A DNA stretch of 39,148 bases from Thermoguttaceae bacterium. Its GTDB lineage: Bacteria > Planctomycetota > Planctomycetia > Pirellulales > Thermoguttaceae. The notes below the pieces were generated by a model, which worked only from the letters and a program-made list of their open reading frames with translations, had not been told where the DNA came from and searched no databases. The stretch's first letter is position 1. Every line of letters begins with the position of its first letter. Position numbers and translations under genes: made by a program. The stretch is taken from contig JBEKTY010000067.1 of the NCBI GenBank assembly GCA_049515555.1, positions 1-39,148 on the forward strand, written 5' to 3'. Below, piece by piece: positions 13,452 to 35,800 of the stretch.

Positions 13452-14627
13452 ATGAGACTTGTCTTCAGTTGCTCTCTGGCGATGACGGCCGTGATGGTCT
13501 TGGCCTTTACGGGCCGCACGGCCGGCAGCGAGATCACCGTCAAGGGCATGGTGCTCAACAACGTCCACACGGGGCAGACGGGCAAGAGTGTCTTTGTCTA
13601 CGCCCTGGACGGCACGCCCGAGATCAAGGCCGAAGTGGAACGCATCATGGCCCACTACTATCCGGACAAGGGGCTGGACGGCGACGCGGCCCGCACGCTT
13701 CAGGATCAATTCACCGCCCGGCTGAAATACTTCATCACCGGGCCGCACGTCGACGAGCTGCACGCGAAAGCCACCTACGGCGCGCGGCAGTGCACGGCCC
13801 TAACGGGGACGGTTGAAGAGAAAGACGGCCAGCGGTGGCTGGCGGTGAGCAAGTATGCCGATACCACGCTGCAATATCCGGCCAAGATGTTGACGCCTGA
13901 CAAGCCCCTGGTGATGCCCGATAAGCCGCCGTTGGTCGTCAAGATCGACCACAAGCTGTCGCTGCGGTGCATCTGGGCGCCGCCCGGCAAGTTCTTCATG
14001 GGCGAGCCTTACTACCAGTGCCCGCACTGGCAGGAGGCCCCGCCGCACATGGTGACGCTCACCCGGGGCTTCTACATGGCCGAGCATCCGATTACCCAGG
14101 AGATGTACGAGGCGGTGGTGGGCCGCAATCCCAGCCGAAAGACAGCGGCCCTTGCGCCCGTCAATGTTTCCTGTGCCGACATGTACGCCTTCTGCCGGCG
14201 CTTGTCGCAAACCGCCGGGCGGCCGGTGCGGGTGCCCACGGCCGCCGAATGGGAATACGCGGCCCGCGTGGGCACGTCCAACCCGCCGCTCCTGCAAAGA
14301 TACCAGGATCAGCAGGGCGCTTCCGGGGAGCCGATGCTGGTCAAGGCCAAACCACCCAATGCCTGGGGCTTCTACGATATGCTGACGGGCGGGTGGGAGC
14401 GCGTCAGCGACAGCTCCGCGCAACTCGATCGCCAGGACACGGTGGATCCACGGCACATCCCGCCGGAAGACCAGGCCCAGGCCGATCAGGGCCGCAAACA
14501 CGGGCACATCGCCAAGGGCAACTCGCAATATGCGCCCAGCGAAATCGAGTACATCACCAGCGATCCCGGCCCCGAGACGACATACCCCGGTGTTATCCGC
14601 TTCCGCGTGGTGCTCGAAGAGCCATAG
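13452..14627 (+). CDS. Formylglycine-generating-enzyme (FGE/SUMF1) domain protein, secreted
   Basis: RBS aaggag, then a signal peptide. The C-terminal ~230 aa show the FGE-sulfatase pattern: PPGKFFMGEP...HMVTLTRGFYMAEHPITQEMYEAVVG...RVPTAAEWEYAARVG...NAWGFYDMLTGGWERVSD. Confidence 0.8.
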   Translation: MRLVFSCSLAMTAVMVLAFTGRTAGSEITVKGMVLNNVHTGQTGKSVFVYALDGTPEIKAEVERIMAHYYPDKGLDGDAARTLQDQFTARLKYFITGPHVDELHAKATYGARQCTALTGTVEEKDGQRWLAVSKYADTTLQYPAKMLTPDKPLVMPDKPPLVVKIDHKLSLRCIWAPPGKFFMGEPYYQCPHWQEAPPHMVTLTRGFYMAEHPITQEMYEAVVGRNPSRKTAALAPVNVSCADMYAFCRRLSQTAGRPVRVPTAAEWEYAARVGTSNPPLLQRYQDQQGASGEPMLVKAKPPNAWGFYDMLTGGWERVSDSSAQLDRQDTVDPRHIPPEDQAQADQGRKHGHIAKGNSQYAPSEIEYITSDPGPETTYPGVIRFRVVLEEP

Positions 14628-30441: not shown

Positions 30442-30874
30442 GGCCGGATCGCCGTCGCCTCATGATTGTGACAACCTCTCCATACGCACCGTCCGCCAAC
30501 ACTTCCGGTGTGGCGTGGTTTATATCGTCCTCCGGACCAAGCTTGCTTGTCCACGTACCGTCCGCAATTAGTTGACGGGCCGCGTGTGTATACATGCCCT
30601 CACGACCATAGACAGCGATCCTTTCGTATTCCGGTTCGCACGCGGCGGAATCGCAGGCAACATATCCGTACCGCTCAAAGACGCGAACGAGCGATTGAAC
30701 TTTGTAGTTGCAGTAAGGCGGACCGACGGGCCAAAAGCGGCCTGTTACGGGCTCCCACCATTCCCCCCGCGCACCGCAGGCATGCGCGATACAGTTTTCA
30801 TCGGGTACCGGATCGCTGGTCAGGCGATAGTTACCCGTTCGCATGTTGGGGAAGTCTGCAAGGTTAATCGTCAC
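30374..30874 (-). CDS. Hypothetical 166-aa protein with conserved Cys/His positions (possible papain-like Cys-His hydrolase fold; unassigned)
   Basis: GTG start overlapping the upstream stop (GTGA), so it is translationally coupled. The motifs DENCIAHACG, GMYTHAARQL and GTWTSKLG...DDINH suggest a Cys/His catalytic arrangement. The C-terminal 20 aa may be a frame artefact. Confidence 0.5.
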   Translation of the reverse strand: MTINLADFPNMRTGNYRLTSDPVPDENCIAHACGARGEWWEPVTGRFWPVGPPYCNYKVQSLVRVFERYGYVACDSAACEPEYERIAVYGREGMYTHAARQLIADGTWTSKLGPEDDINHATPEVLADGAYGEVVTIMRRRRSGHEEAHCCERQERAAQQQNRPAL

Positions 30875-31614
30875 TTAGCGTACCCGTTTCCTTTACCCCA
30901 GGCTAGCCAGGCGTTGGCAATTTCTCGGAGCTTTCCCCAAGACTCCCGAGGAACTGGATCGCTGCCCGTGATGGCACGCAGCGCCCAGTCCCAGTGATCG
31001 GGTCGTTCTCGCATTTCTTCGAGCAGCAACGGAATCGCGCGGTCTCCCATGCCGATTATCTGCTGGTACGCGGGATGTATCACCAGGTCTGTCAGCTTGG
31101 AGCTGTGGCCGCGATCGGATTTCCAGACAGCGACCAGATTGCTGAAACGTTGCCGCACCGCCTCATGCACCGGCTCTGGCAAACACCCCTCACTCCCACG
31201 CATGGCCTCTCGGATTCGCAGCGCCAGGGACCAGGCCGACTTCGGTGTCACTCCTAGCTCGCGGGCGATCTGGCGGCTGCTGACGCCCTTGCTGCTGCTG
31301 GTCATCAGGTCGAGGGCCCTAAGCCATTTGGACAGCGGCAGCTTGCTTTCCTCGAAGATCGTACCGACCCTTACCGTGAATTGTCGGCGGCAATCCTTGC
31401 ACTTCTTCAGCCCTAGCCGACCAGGACTCTTGCTTCCCGGCTTAGCGACAAGTGGGTAGCCTTTCCCGCCACAATAAGGGCAAACCGGAACACCATTTGG
31501 CCAGCGTTGAGTCTCCAGGAAGCACCGTGCCCGGCCCTCGTCTGTAAAAAGCGCCGAAAGGTTGGTAGGATACGCCTTGGCGGCAGTTCCGGTAAGGGGA
31601 TTCTTCGCGGTCAT
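30871..31614 (-). CDS. Zinc-ribbon + HTH protein whose N-terminus resembles an IS1595-type transposase N-terminal DNA-binding module, fused to a non-DDE ~105-aa C-terminal domain (domesticated transposase-derived regulator candidate)
   Basis: The ORF frame runs 30871-31710. The ATG at 31614 follows gaggaag. The pattern ETQRWPNGVPVCPYCGG...KCKDCRRQFTVRVGTIFEESKLPLSKWLRALDLMTSSSKGVSSRQIARELGVTPKSAW matches, by memory, the Zn_Tnp_IS1595 + HTH pattern (LRWPNG..CP.CG....C..C...FS...GTIF...KLPL.KW...YLM...KGISA.QL...LGV..KTAW). There is no EVDETY/DDE block afterwards. Confidence 0.6.
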   Translation of the reverse strand: MTAKNPLTGTAAKAYPTNLSALFTDEGRARCFLETQRWPNGVPVCPYCGGKGYPLVAKPGSKSPGRLGLKKCKDCRRQFTVRVGTIFEESKLPLSKWLRALDLMTSSSKGVSSRQIARELGVTPKSAWSLALRIREAMRGSEGCLPEPVHEAVRQRFSNLVAVWKSDRGHSSKLTDLVIHPAYQQIIGMGDRAIPLLLEEMRERPDHWDWALRAITGSDPVPRESWGKLREIANAWLAWGKGNGYAK

Positions 31615-31678
31615 AGCTTCCTCGCCTACCCACAATTGTACCCTGATGATCGGGTTTGCCAAGTATAACATTCCACAG

Positions 31679-34600
31679 ATGATACTTGCCCCCCTCTTGC
31701 TCTTGTTCACCGGTGCACTGCTGCCATCGGCCGTTCCGCTGTCCGCGGCGACGCCAGAGCCGGTCGCTATTGCGGCCTTGCCTAAACTGCACAGCGGCGT
31801 GCCAGCCTATCCGGTTCCGTTCATGGCCGTCGCCCGCACGCCGCATACAATCGCCCCCTTGCCCGGCAGGGCCATCGACATCCAAACCGACTTCGGCTAT
31901 CCGGCCGGTTTTTCCGGACTGGTGGACGCGGCGATCGGATCGGTGGGCTACCCCGGCTATCGCAATTTCTCGAACCTGGACATCGCCTACGACGCCGAGA
32001 AGCTTTGCCTGCTGGTTTGCGTGCCCTATCCTTACGGGCGGAAGACGCGGGCCCAGGCCACCGAGCCCTCGCCCGAGCTGCTCGCCGACGACGTCTTCGA
32101 GGTGCTCATCGATCCGCGCGACGAGCAGGGCCGCTCGAAGGGCCCGCTGTATCGCGTCGTGGGCAACGCCGCCGGCGTGTGCCGGATCGACCGCGACCTG
32201 CCGCAAATCGGCCAGCCGCACCAGGCGTGGCAGGCGGCGGTAAAATACGGCAGCATGATGTGGGACCCCATGGGAAGCTGGATGGCCGCCGTGCAGATTC
32301 CCTTCCACGATCTGGGCGGGGCGCCCAAAGACGGCCAGGTGTGGGGCATCCAGGCCGCCCTCCGCTACGTCGATCCGAAGATCACCGCCGTGCTGTCGCC
32401 GGCCGACGATTTTACCGATCGCGCGCGCTTCGCCCGGCTGCGCTTCGACGCCGGGCGGAGGGCCAATTACCGCTGCCATTGGCTCTCGGCCGACGAGATC
32501 AAGCAGGGGACCTTCTGCGTGGGCGGCATCTTCAGCAACGGCGCCCATGAGCCGGCATGGTTCGACGGCCGCGTGACGCTGCAGAAGGGCGATCGGCCGC
32601 TGGGCGGCGGAACCTTCGCCCACGCCGCCCAGCCGCTCTCGAAATACGACGGCGACATGGAGCCCTGTCGATTCCCGTCGCAAGCCTCCGGTCCCACCCA
32701 GCGCGACACTGTCGCCCGGTTGGTAGTGACCGACCGCCAGGCCGCAACGATCGTGTACGACCAGTTCCTGCCGTACTGGCAAATGGCCCCCGGCGAGCGC
32801 GACTGGCTGAAGCGGCATTTCGCCAGGGAATTCACCTTCCACGCCGGCCCTTATCCGTCCCGCGGCGCGATCGACTACCGCATCGACTGCCAGACGTTGA
32901 TGGAGGCCCTGCCCCAGGCGGCCCGGGCCGTGGTGACGGTCACTAGCGGCGGCCGGCAGTTGGCCCGGCAGGAACAGCCGCTGCCCAAGGACGGCAAGAT
33001 CGCCGAGACGATCAACGTCGGCGCCATGACCGACGGGGCGACGTATGAGATCGCCGCGGCCATCGTCCGCAGCGACTCTCAGCCCCTCAGTACGCAGCGC
33101 GAAACCTTCACGCGGAAGGTCATGCCGTTCGAGACCGCCCCGCCGGCCGGTGTGGCGGACCTGGTGTCGCCGCCCTTCACGCCGCCCAAGATCGGCCAGG
33201 ACAGTATCGCCTGCATCGGGCGGACCTATACGCACGGCCGGCAAGGCCTCTTGGAAAGCCTCGTCGCCGCCGGCCGGGAGCTGCTCGCCGCTCCGGCCAC
33301 TCTGAAGGTGAAGGTCGGCGATCAGGCCGCCGTGGCCCTGGCCGGCGACGCGCCCACGCTGGCCGCCCACGGAAAAGGGCAGGCTGCCTGCCGGCAGACG
33401 TTCGCCGGAGCGGGGCTGAAAATGACGGTCGACGGCCGTTTCGACTACGACGGTTTCTACCGCTTCTCGGTGCTACTCGCGCCCGGCGCGGCGGCGGTGG
33501 ACCTCAAGCAGTGCTACTTGGAGCTGCCCATCCGGGAGTCGCACGCCACGCTCATGGACGCGCCCGTGGAGTGGATGTCGAAGGACTGGCGCCGCTCGAC
33601 CGGCTTTCTTCCCGCGGCGCAAGGCCGCCTATGGGACTCCAAGCGATTCCCCTTCGCCGTGCGGGAGCGCAAGGGCAACATGCCGCCCTACTGCTGGATC
33701 GGCGACGACGACCGCGGCATTGGCTACTCCTGCGCCTCGGACCAGGGCATGCACAACGACGACGCCCTGCCCGCCGTAACCATCGATCGCGAAGGCCGGG
33801 CGGTGGTCTTGCGGGCCTGGTTCGTCAACAAGCCCCTCACGCTCGGTGCGCCGCGGACTTTCCAATTCGCCTTGCAGGCCAGCCCCTATAAACCCCTCGA
33901 TCCTCAACACCGCCTGTGGCGCTGCGGCGTGGCCCGGCCCGAGTGCTGCTACGGACCGTCTGGCCGCTACTTTCACTCGGGCTGGGGAATCGGCTGCTAT
34001 TATCCGACGTACGGGCGATTCCTGGACCTCGACCGGAACGCCGAGGCCATCCGCCGCGTCCGCCGCTCGGGCTACGACTTCATCGCCGCCTCCGCCTCCG
34101 CCTGCTCCGAGTGCGGCGGCACACCCGAGTACCAGCAGTTCTGGCGCGAGTGGGGTAGCGCCCTGGGCTGGGACAAAATGCCCCTGGGTCCCTTGCCGGA
34201 ATGGATGCAGAAACTTATGAAAGACTCGGGCCGGCCCTACACCGGCTACGTGGCCGTGGAAAGCGCCTCCAATAGCGCCCCCAGCAACTTGGACTATCGT
34301 GCCTGGTGGTTCCAGCAGGTGGCCGCCAATTGCGACACGAGCATGATCTACCAGGACAATCCGCCCTACGGCTACTTCGATCAGCCGGCCGTGGGCTACG
34401 GCTACACCCGCGACGACGGCCTGCGCGAGCCGACCTCGGCCACCTGGAACGCGCGGACCTTTATGCGACGGGCCCTGCACATAGCCGTCGAGAGCGGCAC
34501 CCGCAACCCGGCCCCGGGTGTCTATCCCAACATCTGCGGCTCGGCCCAAGCGGGCCGCAGCTTCTGCTTCCGCGGCCTCATAGGCGAAGACCTCGAGTCC

Positions 34601-35800
34601 GACCAGATCCCGCTGGGCGCCATGCGGGTCTGGTTCTCCCCGCAGTGGGGCATGAACATCGACTGGCTCATGCAAGAGCCCAACGCCGGCGCCAGCCTCA
34701 AGTATTGGCGGGCCCTTTGCAGCCGCCTCTTCCTGCTGGACGTGACCTCCTTCGCCCGCTGGGATTCGGCCGACCAGGCCGCCTGCTGGCTGGCGGCCCT
34801 GGATCTGTTCTGGCTGGATGATCCGACGCTCGTCTGGCACCCTTATTTCCGCAATCCCACAATCAATTCTACGGTGCGGCCCTCTACGCTCGTTTCCAGC
34901 TACACCGCGCGGGGCCGCGCGCTCGTGGTCGTCTCCAACCAGGCGGCCGACGACGTGGTGGAAAACGTGACCCTGGCCGATCTGGCCCCCTTCGGCGCCG
35001 GCGGACTGAGCCACTACTATGATGCGGAGACGGGCGAGGAAATCGAGCAGACCGGGGACTGTCCCAATTTTCGTCCGCCTGGGGACTGTCCCAATTTTCG
35101 TCCGACGAAAATGGGACTGTCCCCCTCGGCCGCCACACCCGCCGCCCTCCGCCTGCATGTGGCCGCCAACGATTTCCGCCTGGTGCTGGGGCTGGTGCGC
35201 CCGTGGCCCTTCGCCGCGAAGAATGCCCTGGCCATGCCGGACCTGCCCGCGCAATCATCGCTCGACGCCCGCCGCACCGTCACGGCCCTGTGCCGGCAAC
35301 TGCTGATCGCACCCAAGGTGACGGCCGTCGATGGCGGGCACCGCCTGACCGAAGCCTGGGTGCAAGGAATGCTCGCCCACTTCCACGCCCAGCCCGAGAA
35401 TTTCGTCTACCTCGACCACGCGGCTTGCGCCGCGATCGATTTGGGCGACAAGAGCATTCAGACGGCCCTGCTGTACGACAAGAAGCGCCAAGCGCTGCTG
35501 GCCGTTTATTTCAATCCCACGACGACCGACCGTTTATTGCGGGGCAACGTGCGCTCAGCACTCGACCGGCAGGTAAACCGCACCGCCTTCGGCTACGTGC
35601 TGGACCCGGTCCGCGGTACCTCGCAATGGAATGTGATCGACGTTCCGGCCGGCAGCGGAAGGCTGGAACTGCTGTACCCCGACTCCGACGACTATGGCCA
35701 TCTGCGGCGCGGCCCCTTCGCCCAAGGCACACTGTGGACCAACCTCCGCCAGGCGCTCGCGGCCAGGAAGAAGGAAATGCAATCTTCGTCCGGCAAGTAA
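31679..35800 (+). CDS. Large secreted protein of unknown function (~1370 aa)
   Basis: The ORF frame runs 31562-35800. ATGs at 31646 or 31679 are both possible. A signal peptide MILAPLLLLFTGALLPSAVPLSAA follows. No recognisable catalytic motif. It contains an in-frame repeat insertion at 35054-35125. Confidence 0.7.
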   Translation: MILAPLLLLFTGALLPSAVPLSAATPEPVAIAALPKLHSGVPAYPVPFMAVARTPHTIAPLPGRAIDIQTDFGYPAGFSGLVDAAIGSVGYPGYRNFSNLDIAYDAEKLCLLVCVPYPYGRKTRAQATEPSPELLADDVFEVLIDPRDEQGRSKGPLYRVVGNAAGVCRIDRDLPQIGQPHQAWQAAVKYGSMMWDPMGSWMAAVQIPFHDLGGAPKDGQVWGIQAALRYVDPKITAVLSPADDFTDRARFARLRFDAGRRANYRCHWLSADEIKQGTFCVGGIFSNGAHEPAWFDGRVTLQKGDRPLGGGTFAHAAQPLSKYDGDMEPCRFPSQASGPTQRDTVARLVVTDRQAATIVYDQFLPYWQMAPGERDWLKRHFAREFTFHAGPYPSRGAIDYRIDCQTLMEALPQAARAVVTVTSGGRQLARQEQPLPKDGKIAETINVGAMTDGATYEIAAAIVRSDSQPLSTQRETFTRKVMPFETAPPAGVADLVSPPFTPPKIGQDSIACIGRTYTHGRQGLLESLVAAGRELLAAPATLKVKVGDQAAVALAGDAPTLAAHGKGQAACRQTFAGAGLKMTVDGRFDYDGFYRFSVLLAPGAAAVDLKQCYLELPIRESHATLMDAPVEWMSKDWRRSTGFLPAAQGRLWDSKRFPFAVRERKGNMPPYCWIGDDDRGIGYSCASDQGMHNDDALPAVTIDREGRAVVLRAWFVNKPLTLGAPRTFQFALQASPYKPLDPQHRLWRCGVARPECCYGPSGRYFHSGWGIGCYYPTYGRFLDLDRNAEAIRRVRRSGYDFIAASASACSECGGTPEYQQFWREWGSALGWDKMPLGPLPEWMQKLMKDSGRPYTGYVAVESASNSAPSNLDYRAWWFQQVAANCDTSMIYQDNPPYGYFDQPAVGYGYTRDDGLREPTSATWNARTFMRRALHIAVESGTRNPAPGVYPNICGSAQAGRSFCFRGLIGEDLESDQIPLGAMRVWFSPQWGMNIDWLMQEPNAGASLKYWRALCSRLFLLDVTSFARWDSADQAACWLAALDLFWLDDPTLVWHPYFRNPTINSTVRPSTLVSSYTARGRALVVVSNQAADDVVENVTLADLAPFGAGGLSHYYDAETGEEIEQTGDCPNFRPPGDCPNFRPTKMGLSPSAATPAALRLHVAANDFRLVLGLVRPWPFAAKNALAMPDLPAQSSLDARRTVTALCRQLLIAPKVTAVDGGHRLTEAWVQGMLAHFHAQPENFVYLDHAACAAIDLGDKSIQTALLYDKKRQALLAVYFNPTTTDRLLRGNVRSALDRQVNRTAFGYVLDPVRGTSQWNVIDVPAGSGRLELLYPDSDDYGHLRRGPFAQGTLWTNLRQALAARKKEMQSSSGK
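35054..35125. repeat. Intragenic repeat: 24-bp unit ggggactgtcccaattttcgtccg twice in tandem plus an inverted partial copy (cgacgaaaatgggactgtcccc). The core gggactgtccc is itself palindromic
   Basis: Read directly. The in-frame translation is TGDCPNFRPPGDCPNFRPTKMGLSP. The local base composition differs from the surrounding CDS. Confidence 0.7.

Follow-up and report, generated by a model that had tools for sequence, protein, structure and literature searches.

A small dispersed hairpin repeat of Planctomycetota, probably the source of an in-frame insert in a GH123-like protein of Thermoguttaceae

The stretch of DNA analyzed here, which we call the window, comprises the 39,148 nt of contig JBEKTY010000067.1 from the Thermoguttaceae bacterium assembly GCA_049515555.1. 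It contains a long gene coding for a protein related to GH123_N (DUF6067), and inside this gene there is a short segment with direct and inverted repeats, which is the subject of this work. The positions of all features are collected in Table 1; loci and proteins used for comparison are designated by L and P numbers, respectively. The host protein matches Pfam PF19543 (GH123_N) with E = 9.5e-10. Its length is 1365 amino acids in the JGI call and 1373 in the NCBI call, while the open reading frame (ORF) has 1412 codons when counted from its first possible start. The codon log-likelihood score of this frame, 460, is by far the best among the overlapping ORFs; the long antisense ORFs found over the gene are a usual by-product of a GC content of 68%. 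By eye, the N-terminus, MILAPLLLLFTGALLPSAVPLSAA, looks like a signal peptide. Proteins P0001 and P0038 are identical to the host protein, and NCBI gives P0038 the name 'glycoside hydrolase domain-containing protein [Thermoguttaceae bacterium]'.

The repeated segment begins with a 24-mer, GGGGACTGTCCCAATTTTCGTCCG, present in two identical copies at 35054-35077 and 35081-35104. An original prediction, made from the sequence alone, described these copies as a tandem. They are exact, but they are not strictly head-to-tail: CCT lies between them and the period is 27 nt. An inverted arm, CGAAAATGGGACTGTCCCC, follows at 35106-35124, and it is the inverted partner of the second copy. These repeats are real features of the window. 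The 24-mer, with up to three mismatches allowed, is found in these two places only, with no match in 100 shuffles; the core GGGACWGTCCC appears three times, always at the insert (shuffle mean 0.03); and an independent repeat search recovers the same direct and inverted repeats. As predicted, the core is palindromic, an odd-length palindrome centered on a T, and the segment is richer in AT than the rest of the gene: GC is 0.55-0.60 over 35040-35129 and about 0.68-0.75 on both flanks (about 0.7). The peptide predicted for the segment, GDCPNFRPPGDCPNFRPTKMGLSP, is indeed the one obtained in the frame of ORF 31562-35800(+).

The inserted DNA covers 81 nt overall: a complete 46-nt element, preceded by a 27-nt partial duplicate made up of the left arm and part of the loop. 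Its limits can be placed only to within a few nt, since the loop codons on both sides are variable. The copy is preceded by GACC. Since 81 is a multiple of three, the host gene stays in frame, and the insert adds the residues GDCPNFRPPGDCPNFRPTKMGLSPSAA to its protein.

Table 1. Features of the window and of the other loci discussed in the text
Feature	Sequence	Position	Strand	Basis or remark
Host gene, GH123_N (DUF6067)-like	Window	31679..35800	+	ORF open from 31562; ORF list and translation, Pfam, codon score
Lineage-specific insert, 81 nt (27 codons)	Window	35054..35134	+	Alignments
Extra left arm GGGGACTGTCCCAATTTTCG and first 4 nt of loop (TCCG)	Window	35054..35077	+	Followed by spacer CCT (35078-35080)
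Canonical short-loop element, 46 nt	Window	35081..35126	+	Exact 44-mer elsewhere, family consensus, hairpin energy
Left arm of canonical element	Window	35081-35100	+	Bulged A at 35093
Loop TCCGA	Window	35101-35105	+	Part of canonical element
Right arm CGAAAATGGGACTGTCCCC	Window	35106-35124	+	Followed by 3' tail CT
Codons predicted as disordered loop	Window	35060..35128	+	pLDDT < 50, AlphaFold2 model
Beta-strands bracketing the insert	Window	35045-35053 and 35144-35161	+	AlphaFold2 model
Thiamine-phosphate synthase (ThiE) with element	L021			Pfam
Ser/Thr kinase with element	L065			Pfam
Phosphoglucomutase (PGM) with element	L082			Pfam
BioB-like radical-SAM enzyme with element	L088			Pfam
PurQ-like amidotransferase (GATase_5) with element	L038			Pfam
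MiaB-like enzyme with element	L011			Pfam
GH95 with element	L043			Pfam
Spore-photoproduct-lyase-like enzyme (SPL) with element	L074			Pfam
TPR protein, element upstream of TPR repeats	L115			Pfam
223-aa Y1_Tnp family gene	L001	3224-3901	+	
223-aa Y1_Tnp family gene	L138	1962-2633		
223-aa Y1_Tnp family gene	L139	2001-2666		
223-aa Y1_Tnp family gene	L140	115-780		
223-aa Y1_Tnp family gene	L141	2001-2672		

The segment is found in a single lineage. We aligned 36 of the 37 homologues found, all but the distant P0037. Only P0001, identical to the host protein, carries the insert; the other 35, with identities of 44-82%, lack it. The 35 homologues read ...YYDAETGEEIE-xT, followed by a turn of 3-4 residues and by ALRLHV. 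A DNA alignment with L117, L118 and L119 presents one clean gap of 81 nt, which corresponds to a gain in the window. The place of the insert in the protein is indicated by an AlphaFold2 model of the C-terminal 362 residues (window 34712-35797), built with 28 homologues, whose mean predicted local distance difference test (pLDDT) score is 87. Model residues 117-139, which correspond to the insert, have a pLDDT below 50, with confident beta-strands on both sides (112-114 and 145-150): The DNA has therefore landed in the turn of a beta-hairpin. According to the model, the 27 encoded residues would form a floppy surface loop which the fold tolerates. The same turn also varies in length in P0008.

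We should also note that the orthologue P0025 (L137) has a different lineage-specific insert, also in frame: GNGRLVPRSPSLPVSRSPSLPVPLSS, at codons about 1122-1147, encoded by GTCTCC-rich tandem DNA. The loop which holds it immediately precedes the one occupied by the insert of the window. This domain has thus accepted repeat DNA twice.

The element is not restricted to this gene. We have scanned one genome per species with the right-arm pattern CGAAAATGGGACWGTCCC and found at least 132 right-arm copies at no fewer than 116 loci, in 39 or more assemblies (assembly prefixes counted among the matches listed). The segment is thus clearly neither shared by all orthologues nor free of copies elsewhere, as an ordinary structural repeat of the protein would be. 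Among the matches listed, to which all the counts of family copies given below also refer, every one comes from a metagenome-assembled genome (MAG) of Planctomycetota: Pirellulales, Thermoguttaceae, Pirellulaceae and others. The left arm, which is conserved in 104 complete copies, was outside the query, and its conservation is therefore independent evidence for the family. The exact 44-mer of the window (35081-35124) is present at 11 or more other loci in 5 assemblies, and with its TCCGA loop it is the commonest short-loop form. A profile hidden Markov model built from 45 family copies gives E = 1.4e-18 at the insert site; the next best match in the window has E = 0.38.

In the element-bearing sequence examined there are roughly 19 extra copies per Mb. 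Loops are shared within one MAG, for example in about 8 copies at different loci of JADLEL01; between MAGs the loops differ and the arms are identical. This pattern would fit multiplication within genomes together with constraint on the arms. Six IMG/VR contigs classed as viral (L131-L136) also carry the element. A metagenome scan with the 21-mer of the left flank, GGCGAGGAAATCGAGCAGACC, gave 8 unrelated chance matches and missed the known JGI contigs, so it is uninformative about empty or variant alleles.

All family members share the same plan: a left arm GGGGACTGTCCC[A/G]ATTTTCG, a loop of 3-49 nt and a right arm CGAAAATGGGACTGTCCCC(TT). The loop has 3-7 nt in 50 of the 104 complete copies, 41-45 nt in 38 and other lengths in 16. 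The arms are not simple inverted copies of each other, each of them has the core GGGGACTGTCCC on the same strand. The central T of the core is found on this strand in 102/104 and 103/104 cases for the two arms, and an extra purine, A (65 copies) or G (39), is always found in the left arm. When folded, the element has a stem of 19 bp with one fixed T.T mismatch and one fixed bulge. The 44-nt hairpin has -18.6 kcal/mol as DNA (z = -8.25) and -28.5 kcal/mol as RNA (z = -6.94), and it is stable on either strand. Each arm contains a 13-nt palindrome, GGGGACTGTCCCC, and could, judging from its sequence, fold on itself. The polarity of the element, maintained across 39 assemblies and with unrelated loops, suggests that it is read on one strand, as either single-stranded DNA or RNA.

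Conservation ends sharply at -1 on the 5' side and at +3 on the 3' side, where the tail is CTT or CCT. Different copies have unrelated flanks; at all positions that precede the first G, the information content is 0.1-0.4 bit. This pattern is expected of a discrete unit that has been inserted. The canonical element is free of stop codons in all six frames, as are 1.3% of its composition-matched shuffles; the corresponding value for shuffles of the 81-mer of the window is 0.4%.

The arms also appear in mosaics. The left-left-right arrangement of the window is found in L030, L132 and L134, the last two being among the contigs classed as viral mentioned above, and L080 has left-right-right. Where the order is left-left-right, a few bases from the start of the loop go with the additional left arm. 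Orthologues of the host gene provide another example. In L118, the stop codon of the orthologous gene is followed, 20 nt further on, by a full long-loop element (14151-14240). In L119 and L120, a solo GGGGACTGTCCCC is found downstream of the orthologous gene at about 14108, with the GTTCACA of L118 in front of it. The interior seems to have been lost by deletion between two cores. As the cores are direct repeats, such a deletion is possible.

The loops deserve some comments. The interiors of 41-45-nt loops fold no better than shuffled sequence, and the median z is -0.56 over all 50 loops with at least 10 nt. Long-loop copies (L009, L010, L020, L064, L066, L093 and L104, for example) are part of a longer unit, with a conserved 5' sequence CGTTCACA and a 3' tail, ...CGCGCCGCGGGAAGGGGACAGGTCCATGTTTTCGGCC, which holds a degenerate third arm. 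Their loop length is nearly constant, and the loop sequence differs between genomes. GCGAAGC is a very stable DNA mini-hairpin, and loops of 22-27 nt (L003, L027, L032, L095 and others) are nested hairpins which often have it as a cap; the medium loop of L024 is capped by its complement, GCTTCGC. In the CAVTCJ01 assembly (two copies in L015, others in L034, L049 and L082) the short hairpin sits at the tip of a larger repeat, about 110 nt long, whose outer inverted repeats are GGCCGGCGAATCAATAAGTG ... CTTCTGAAATGCGACAGTTATTAATTTGCCGATCC.

To place the copies relative to genes, we used a simple gene caller based on a codon model, for which the called genes of L118, L119 and L121 were the training set. 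Of the 104 complete copies, 35 are inside stop-to-stop ORFs and 69 outside called ORFs. About 15 of the 35 intragenic copies have a coding signal on both sides, and Pfam domains flank or span the element in at least eight genes other than the host gene (Table 1). All six frames of the element are translated, giving peptides such as GTVPIF...KMGLSP, GDSPIF...KIGTVP or RGLSQFS...ENGTVP. The host gene is therefore not exceptional: Intragenic copies in frame are regularly found in the family. In L098 (about 1-1925, - strand), two long-loop elements in tandem are translated in an ORF of 640 codons, with RGLSQFSRQEEVALPKDLSAAKMGLSP repeated.

Other copies tend to be near the ends of genes. Among the 83 which are not deep in a called ORF, 49 are at most 400 nt from the 3' end of a gene, with a median distance of 58 nt. 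In 31 cases the element is on the same strand as the upstream gene and in 18 on the opposite one, a weak bias; we have discarded it as a way of deciding between a role at the RNA level and one at the DNA level. There is no T run after the hairpin, only CTT or CCT and then unrelated sequence, so this feature of intrinsic terminators is absent. The placement resembles that of repetitive extragenic palindromic (REP) elements, and the element may have a secondary role in the stability of mRNA 3' ends.

In our opinion, the insert is very probably a small non-coding hairpin repeat, dispersed in Pirellulales and Thermoguttaceae, which in one lineage was inserted into a beta-hairpin turn of a GH123-like protein. 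The original prediction of a miniature mobile repeat landed in frame agrees with this, as the insert is lineage-specific and the same sequence is found in unrelated contexts of Planctomycetota. The element would spread as a non-autonomous unit. Its nearly invariant hairpin, asymmetric through the T.T mismatch, the purine bulge and the core kept on the same strand of both arms, would be recognized as single-stranded nucleic acid by an enzyme supplied in trans. Copies which fall in frame in tolerant loops would survive, others would be purged. The extra left arm may have originated by slippage or template switching at the hairpin. For the host protein, the insertion was most likely neutral: It is probably an ordinary, harmless event.

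Several observations weigh against this explanation. In 832 kb of element-bearing loci we have found no enzyme linked to the element. A regular-expression search of six-frame translations of these loci detected two Y1_Tnp genes (IS200-like, of the type of REP-associated tyrosine transposases, RAYT), 2-3 kb from an element, and neither is flanked by it. One is a member of a family of 223-aa proteins, highly conserved and common in these bacteria, and five loci of this family are bracketed by a different terminal repeat, GGGGGACACGAACCGAT. An inspection by eye showed no target-site duplication at the edges of 50 short-loop copies, and around the family copies no target sequence is visibly conserved. 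The profile search detected no second copy of the element within the 39-kb window. Finally, the insert adds two cysteines to a probably exported protein, while neutrality is assumed. We can add that no parent insertion sequence with the ends of the element was seen in the 832 kb of flanking sequence, and that the comparison of the window site with empty orthologous sites, also by eye, did not reveal a target-site duplication. The lack of visible duplications would suit a HUH-type mechanism, although it proves nothing.

The terminal repeats of the Y1_Tnp family are inverted, with GGGGGACAC(G/A/T)AACCGAT(ATTGACA) upstream and TCGGTTCGTGTCCCCCG downstream. The best 120 listed relatives of the 223-aa protein are 78-96% identical to the query, and many of them are on contigs of about 1 kb. 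In L141, at about 1840-1925, there are seven tandem copies of GGGGAAGGGAATC directly upstream of the Y1_Tnp gene.

Other explanations of the insert have to be considered. A role at the RNA level, like that of E. coli REPs, is the least improbable of them, although we find it unlikely: The hairpin would protect or process mRNA 3' ends, and the intragenic copy would pause ribosomes or create a processing site. The stability of the RNA hairpin, the clustering of extragenic copies just after stop codons, which includes the one that follows the L118 orthologue, and the central T found on the same strand in both arms, which fits strand-specific reading, all speak in its favor. Nevertheless, the orientation bias is weak, the hairpin is not followed by a T run and it matches no Rfam family. 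Besides, such a role explains why extragenic copies are retained and not how the element arrives at new sites; it is therefore compatible with the insertion of a dispersed repeat, the two do not exclude each other. Quite improbable, in our view, is a slippage hotspot, as proposed in the original prediction, where the 24-nt copies or the three direct GGGACTGTCCC cores would expand and contract to give a surface loop of variable length or phase. The exact direct repeats 27 nt apart and the three direct cores speak for such a process. The recurrence of left-left-right indicates that duplication of the left arm does happen, and the solo core of L119, where L118 has the full element, suggests deletion between cores. 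However, the five available sequences of the allele share an identical two-plus-one arrangement: the NCBI MAG contig, two JGI fragments and two JGI contigs, each of the latter from a different sample. They correspond to the 90%-identity cluster of the protein, which has five members; four of these cover the site (P0001, P0038, P0039 and P0040), and P0001 is recorded on two contigs. A period of 27 nt keeps the frame, which leaves no on/off switching, and deletions between cores 2 and 3 (31 nt) or 1 and 3 (58 nt) would destroy the gene, which is not a switch either. Known contingency loci have far more repeats than the two copies of the 27-nt unit found here. At the level of these assembled sequences, a variable loop thus finds no support.

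An adaptive loop seems to us, if anything, slightly less credible still. The insert would be a new binding or stabilizing feature of an exported enzyme, and the cysteines of GDCPNFRPPGDCPNFRP might build, for instance, a disulfide or a metal site. In its favor, two samples or more have the identical allele, and the two cysteines gained lie 9 residues apart. On the other hand, the same DNA is read in all six frames in unrelated proteins, so the peptide is a by-product of the DNA. Furthermore, the loop is predicted to be disordered and no orthologue has anything comparable at the site. We give practically no credit to an assembly or sequencing artefact, or to an ordinary repeat which the protein would have had from its ancestors. 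Assembly may go wrong at hairpins and short repeats, but the identical sequence is found in several separately recorded contigs from two or more samples, the reading frame is kept and the element matches a family present in at least 39 other assemblies. An ancestral repeat is ruled against by its absence from every orthologue.

A more ambitious proposal goes beyond the insertion itself: The family would be an undescribed element spread over the order Pirellulales. Its strictly polar hairpin, with same-strand cores, a fixed T.T mismatch and a fixed purine bulge, would be recognized on one strand, not by a classical RAYT encoded by a REPtron but by some other machinery, and the element would be routinely built into essential enzymes. 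It would be a counterpart, in free-living bacteria, of the Rickettsia palindromic elements (RPE) and a steady source of surface loops. We consider this tentative, and on the whole rather doubtful.

Several kinds of known repeats resemble the family. RPEs are small selfish palindromic repeats, which lie in intergenic regions and also, in frame, inside functional genes, some of them housekeeping ones (Ogata et al. 2000, cited by PMC3733652). Both families have intergenic copies and in-frame intragenic ones, which are translated in different frames and give peptides on the outside of proteins. Our family shows the same behavior: in-frame insertion in functional genes, absence from the orthologues and location at the protein surface. 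RPEs are reported to have about 100-150 bp. They are thus longer than the 46-nt unit with variable loops described here, and their hosts are Rickettsia, obligate intracellular alphaproteobacteria, not free-living Planctomycetota. We expect no sequence relationship between both families, they are likened by behavior only.

With REP elements, their REPIN doublets and bacterial interspersed mosaic elements (BIME), all of them mobilized by RAYTs (Nunvar 2010 and Bertels & Rainey 2011, cited in PMC3733652; PMC6006769), the family shares a short and imperfect GC-rich palindrome, the formation of inverted pairs and mosaics, and conservation across species. Among the copies listed, it is also dispersed, for the most part a short way downstream of genes, as these elements are. 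REPs are occasionally found inside ORFs (PMC3733652). The 44-nt hairpin corresponds to the short imperfect palindrome (20-40 nt), able to form a stem-loop, which defines a REP. The differences are equally clear: This family lacks the 5' GTAG/GTGG or CGTC tetranucleotide foot, its arms carry a same-strand core instead of being true inverted copies, and no REPtron arrangement was found in the 832 kb of element-bearing loci; the Y1_Tnp genes examined are not flanked by the element and have their own terminal repeat. Class 3 HuH proteins, found mainly in Planctomycetes, are associated with different hairpins, such as CCGAGCCGCGACTGTCAAGGAGCGGTTG in the Solibacter example (PMC6006769).

Bacterial miniature inverted-repeat transposable elements (MITE) are also non-autonomous and dispersed, with inverted ends, and our element has such terminal inverted repeats, with one mismatch and one bulge. 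The title of a paper on the Coxiella burnetii MITEs refers to implications for protein evolution (PMC5896051). MITEs have 70-300 bp (PMC3733652), as compared with 46 nt; for the family, moreover, no target-site duplication was detected, and no parent insertion sequence with the same ends was seen in the 832 kb examined. TIRYT terminal repeats have the motif GGGGWSAS (PMC3733652), which fits the beginning of the bottom strand of the element, GGGGACAG, and Y1_Tnp genes with GGGGGACAC... terminal repeats are found in the same genomes. However, the sequences diverge past the first 7 nt and no Y1_Tnp gene flanked by the element was found; this resemblance is a lead only. We have rejected an integron attC site, which the bulged hairpin and the variable loop had brought to mind: The copies are single and dispersed, they do not form cassette arrays, and their arms presumably lack attC core motifs.

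The databases did not provide a name for the family. The sole Rfam match in window 34900-35300 has E = 6.6, far below the gathering score of its family, and in eight element-bearing loci nothing but a tRNA was found. In the searchable literature, the core sequence appears in unrelated eukaryotic papers only, and no paper ties RPE-type elements or such MITEs to Planctomycetes; neither this literature nor Rfam contains a description of the family that we could find. Small dispersed palindromic repeats able to insert in frame are a known kind of element, and this family of them appears to be undescribed. What is unusual in it is a strictly polar hairpin for which no mobilizing enzyme was found.

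The insertion accounts for an odd-looking, low-complexity peptide in the host protein. The family behind it is moderately interesting, beyond the host gene itself. For annotation, the element creates spurious small ORFs and adds motifs such as GTVPIF, ENGTVP, KMGLSP and KSGQSP to real planctomycete proteins. For assembly, identical hairpins dispersed in a genome may break contigs. From the point of view of protein evolution, it is a natural experiment which can tell what loops accept 15-27 additional residues in ThiE, kinases, PGM, radical-SAM enzymes and glycoside hydrolases. For the biology of mobile elements, it is a conserved and asymmetric unit, with no transposase found, and it belongs to a phylum whose repeats of this type have received very little study.

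We have seen no link between the hairpin element and the gene immediately upstream of the GH123-like gene, on the opposite strand (30871-31707). The product of this gene matches Zn_ribbon_IS1595, a zinc ribbon of the transposase type, with E = 3e-7, and it also has a weak match to region 4 of sigma-70.

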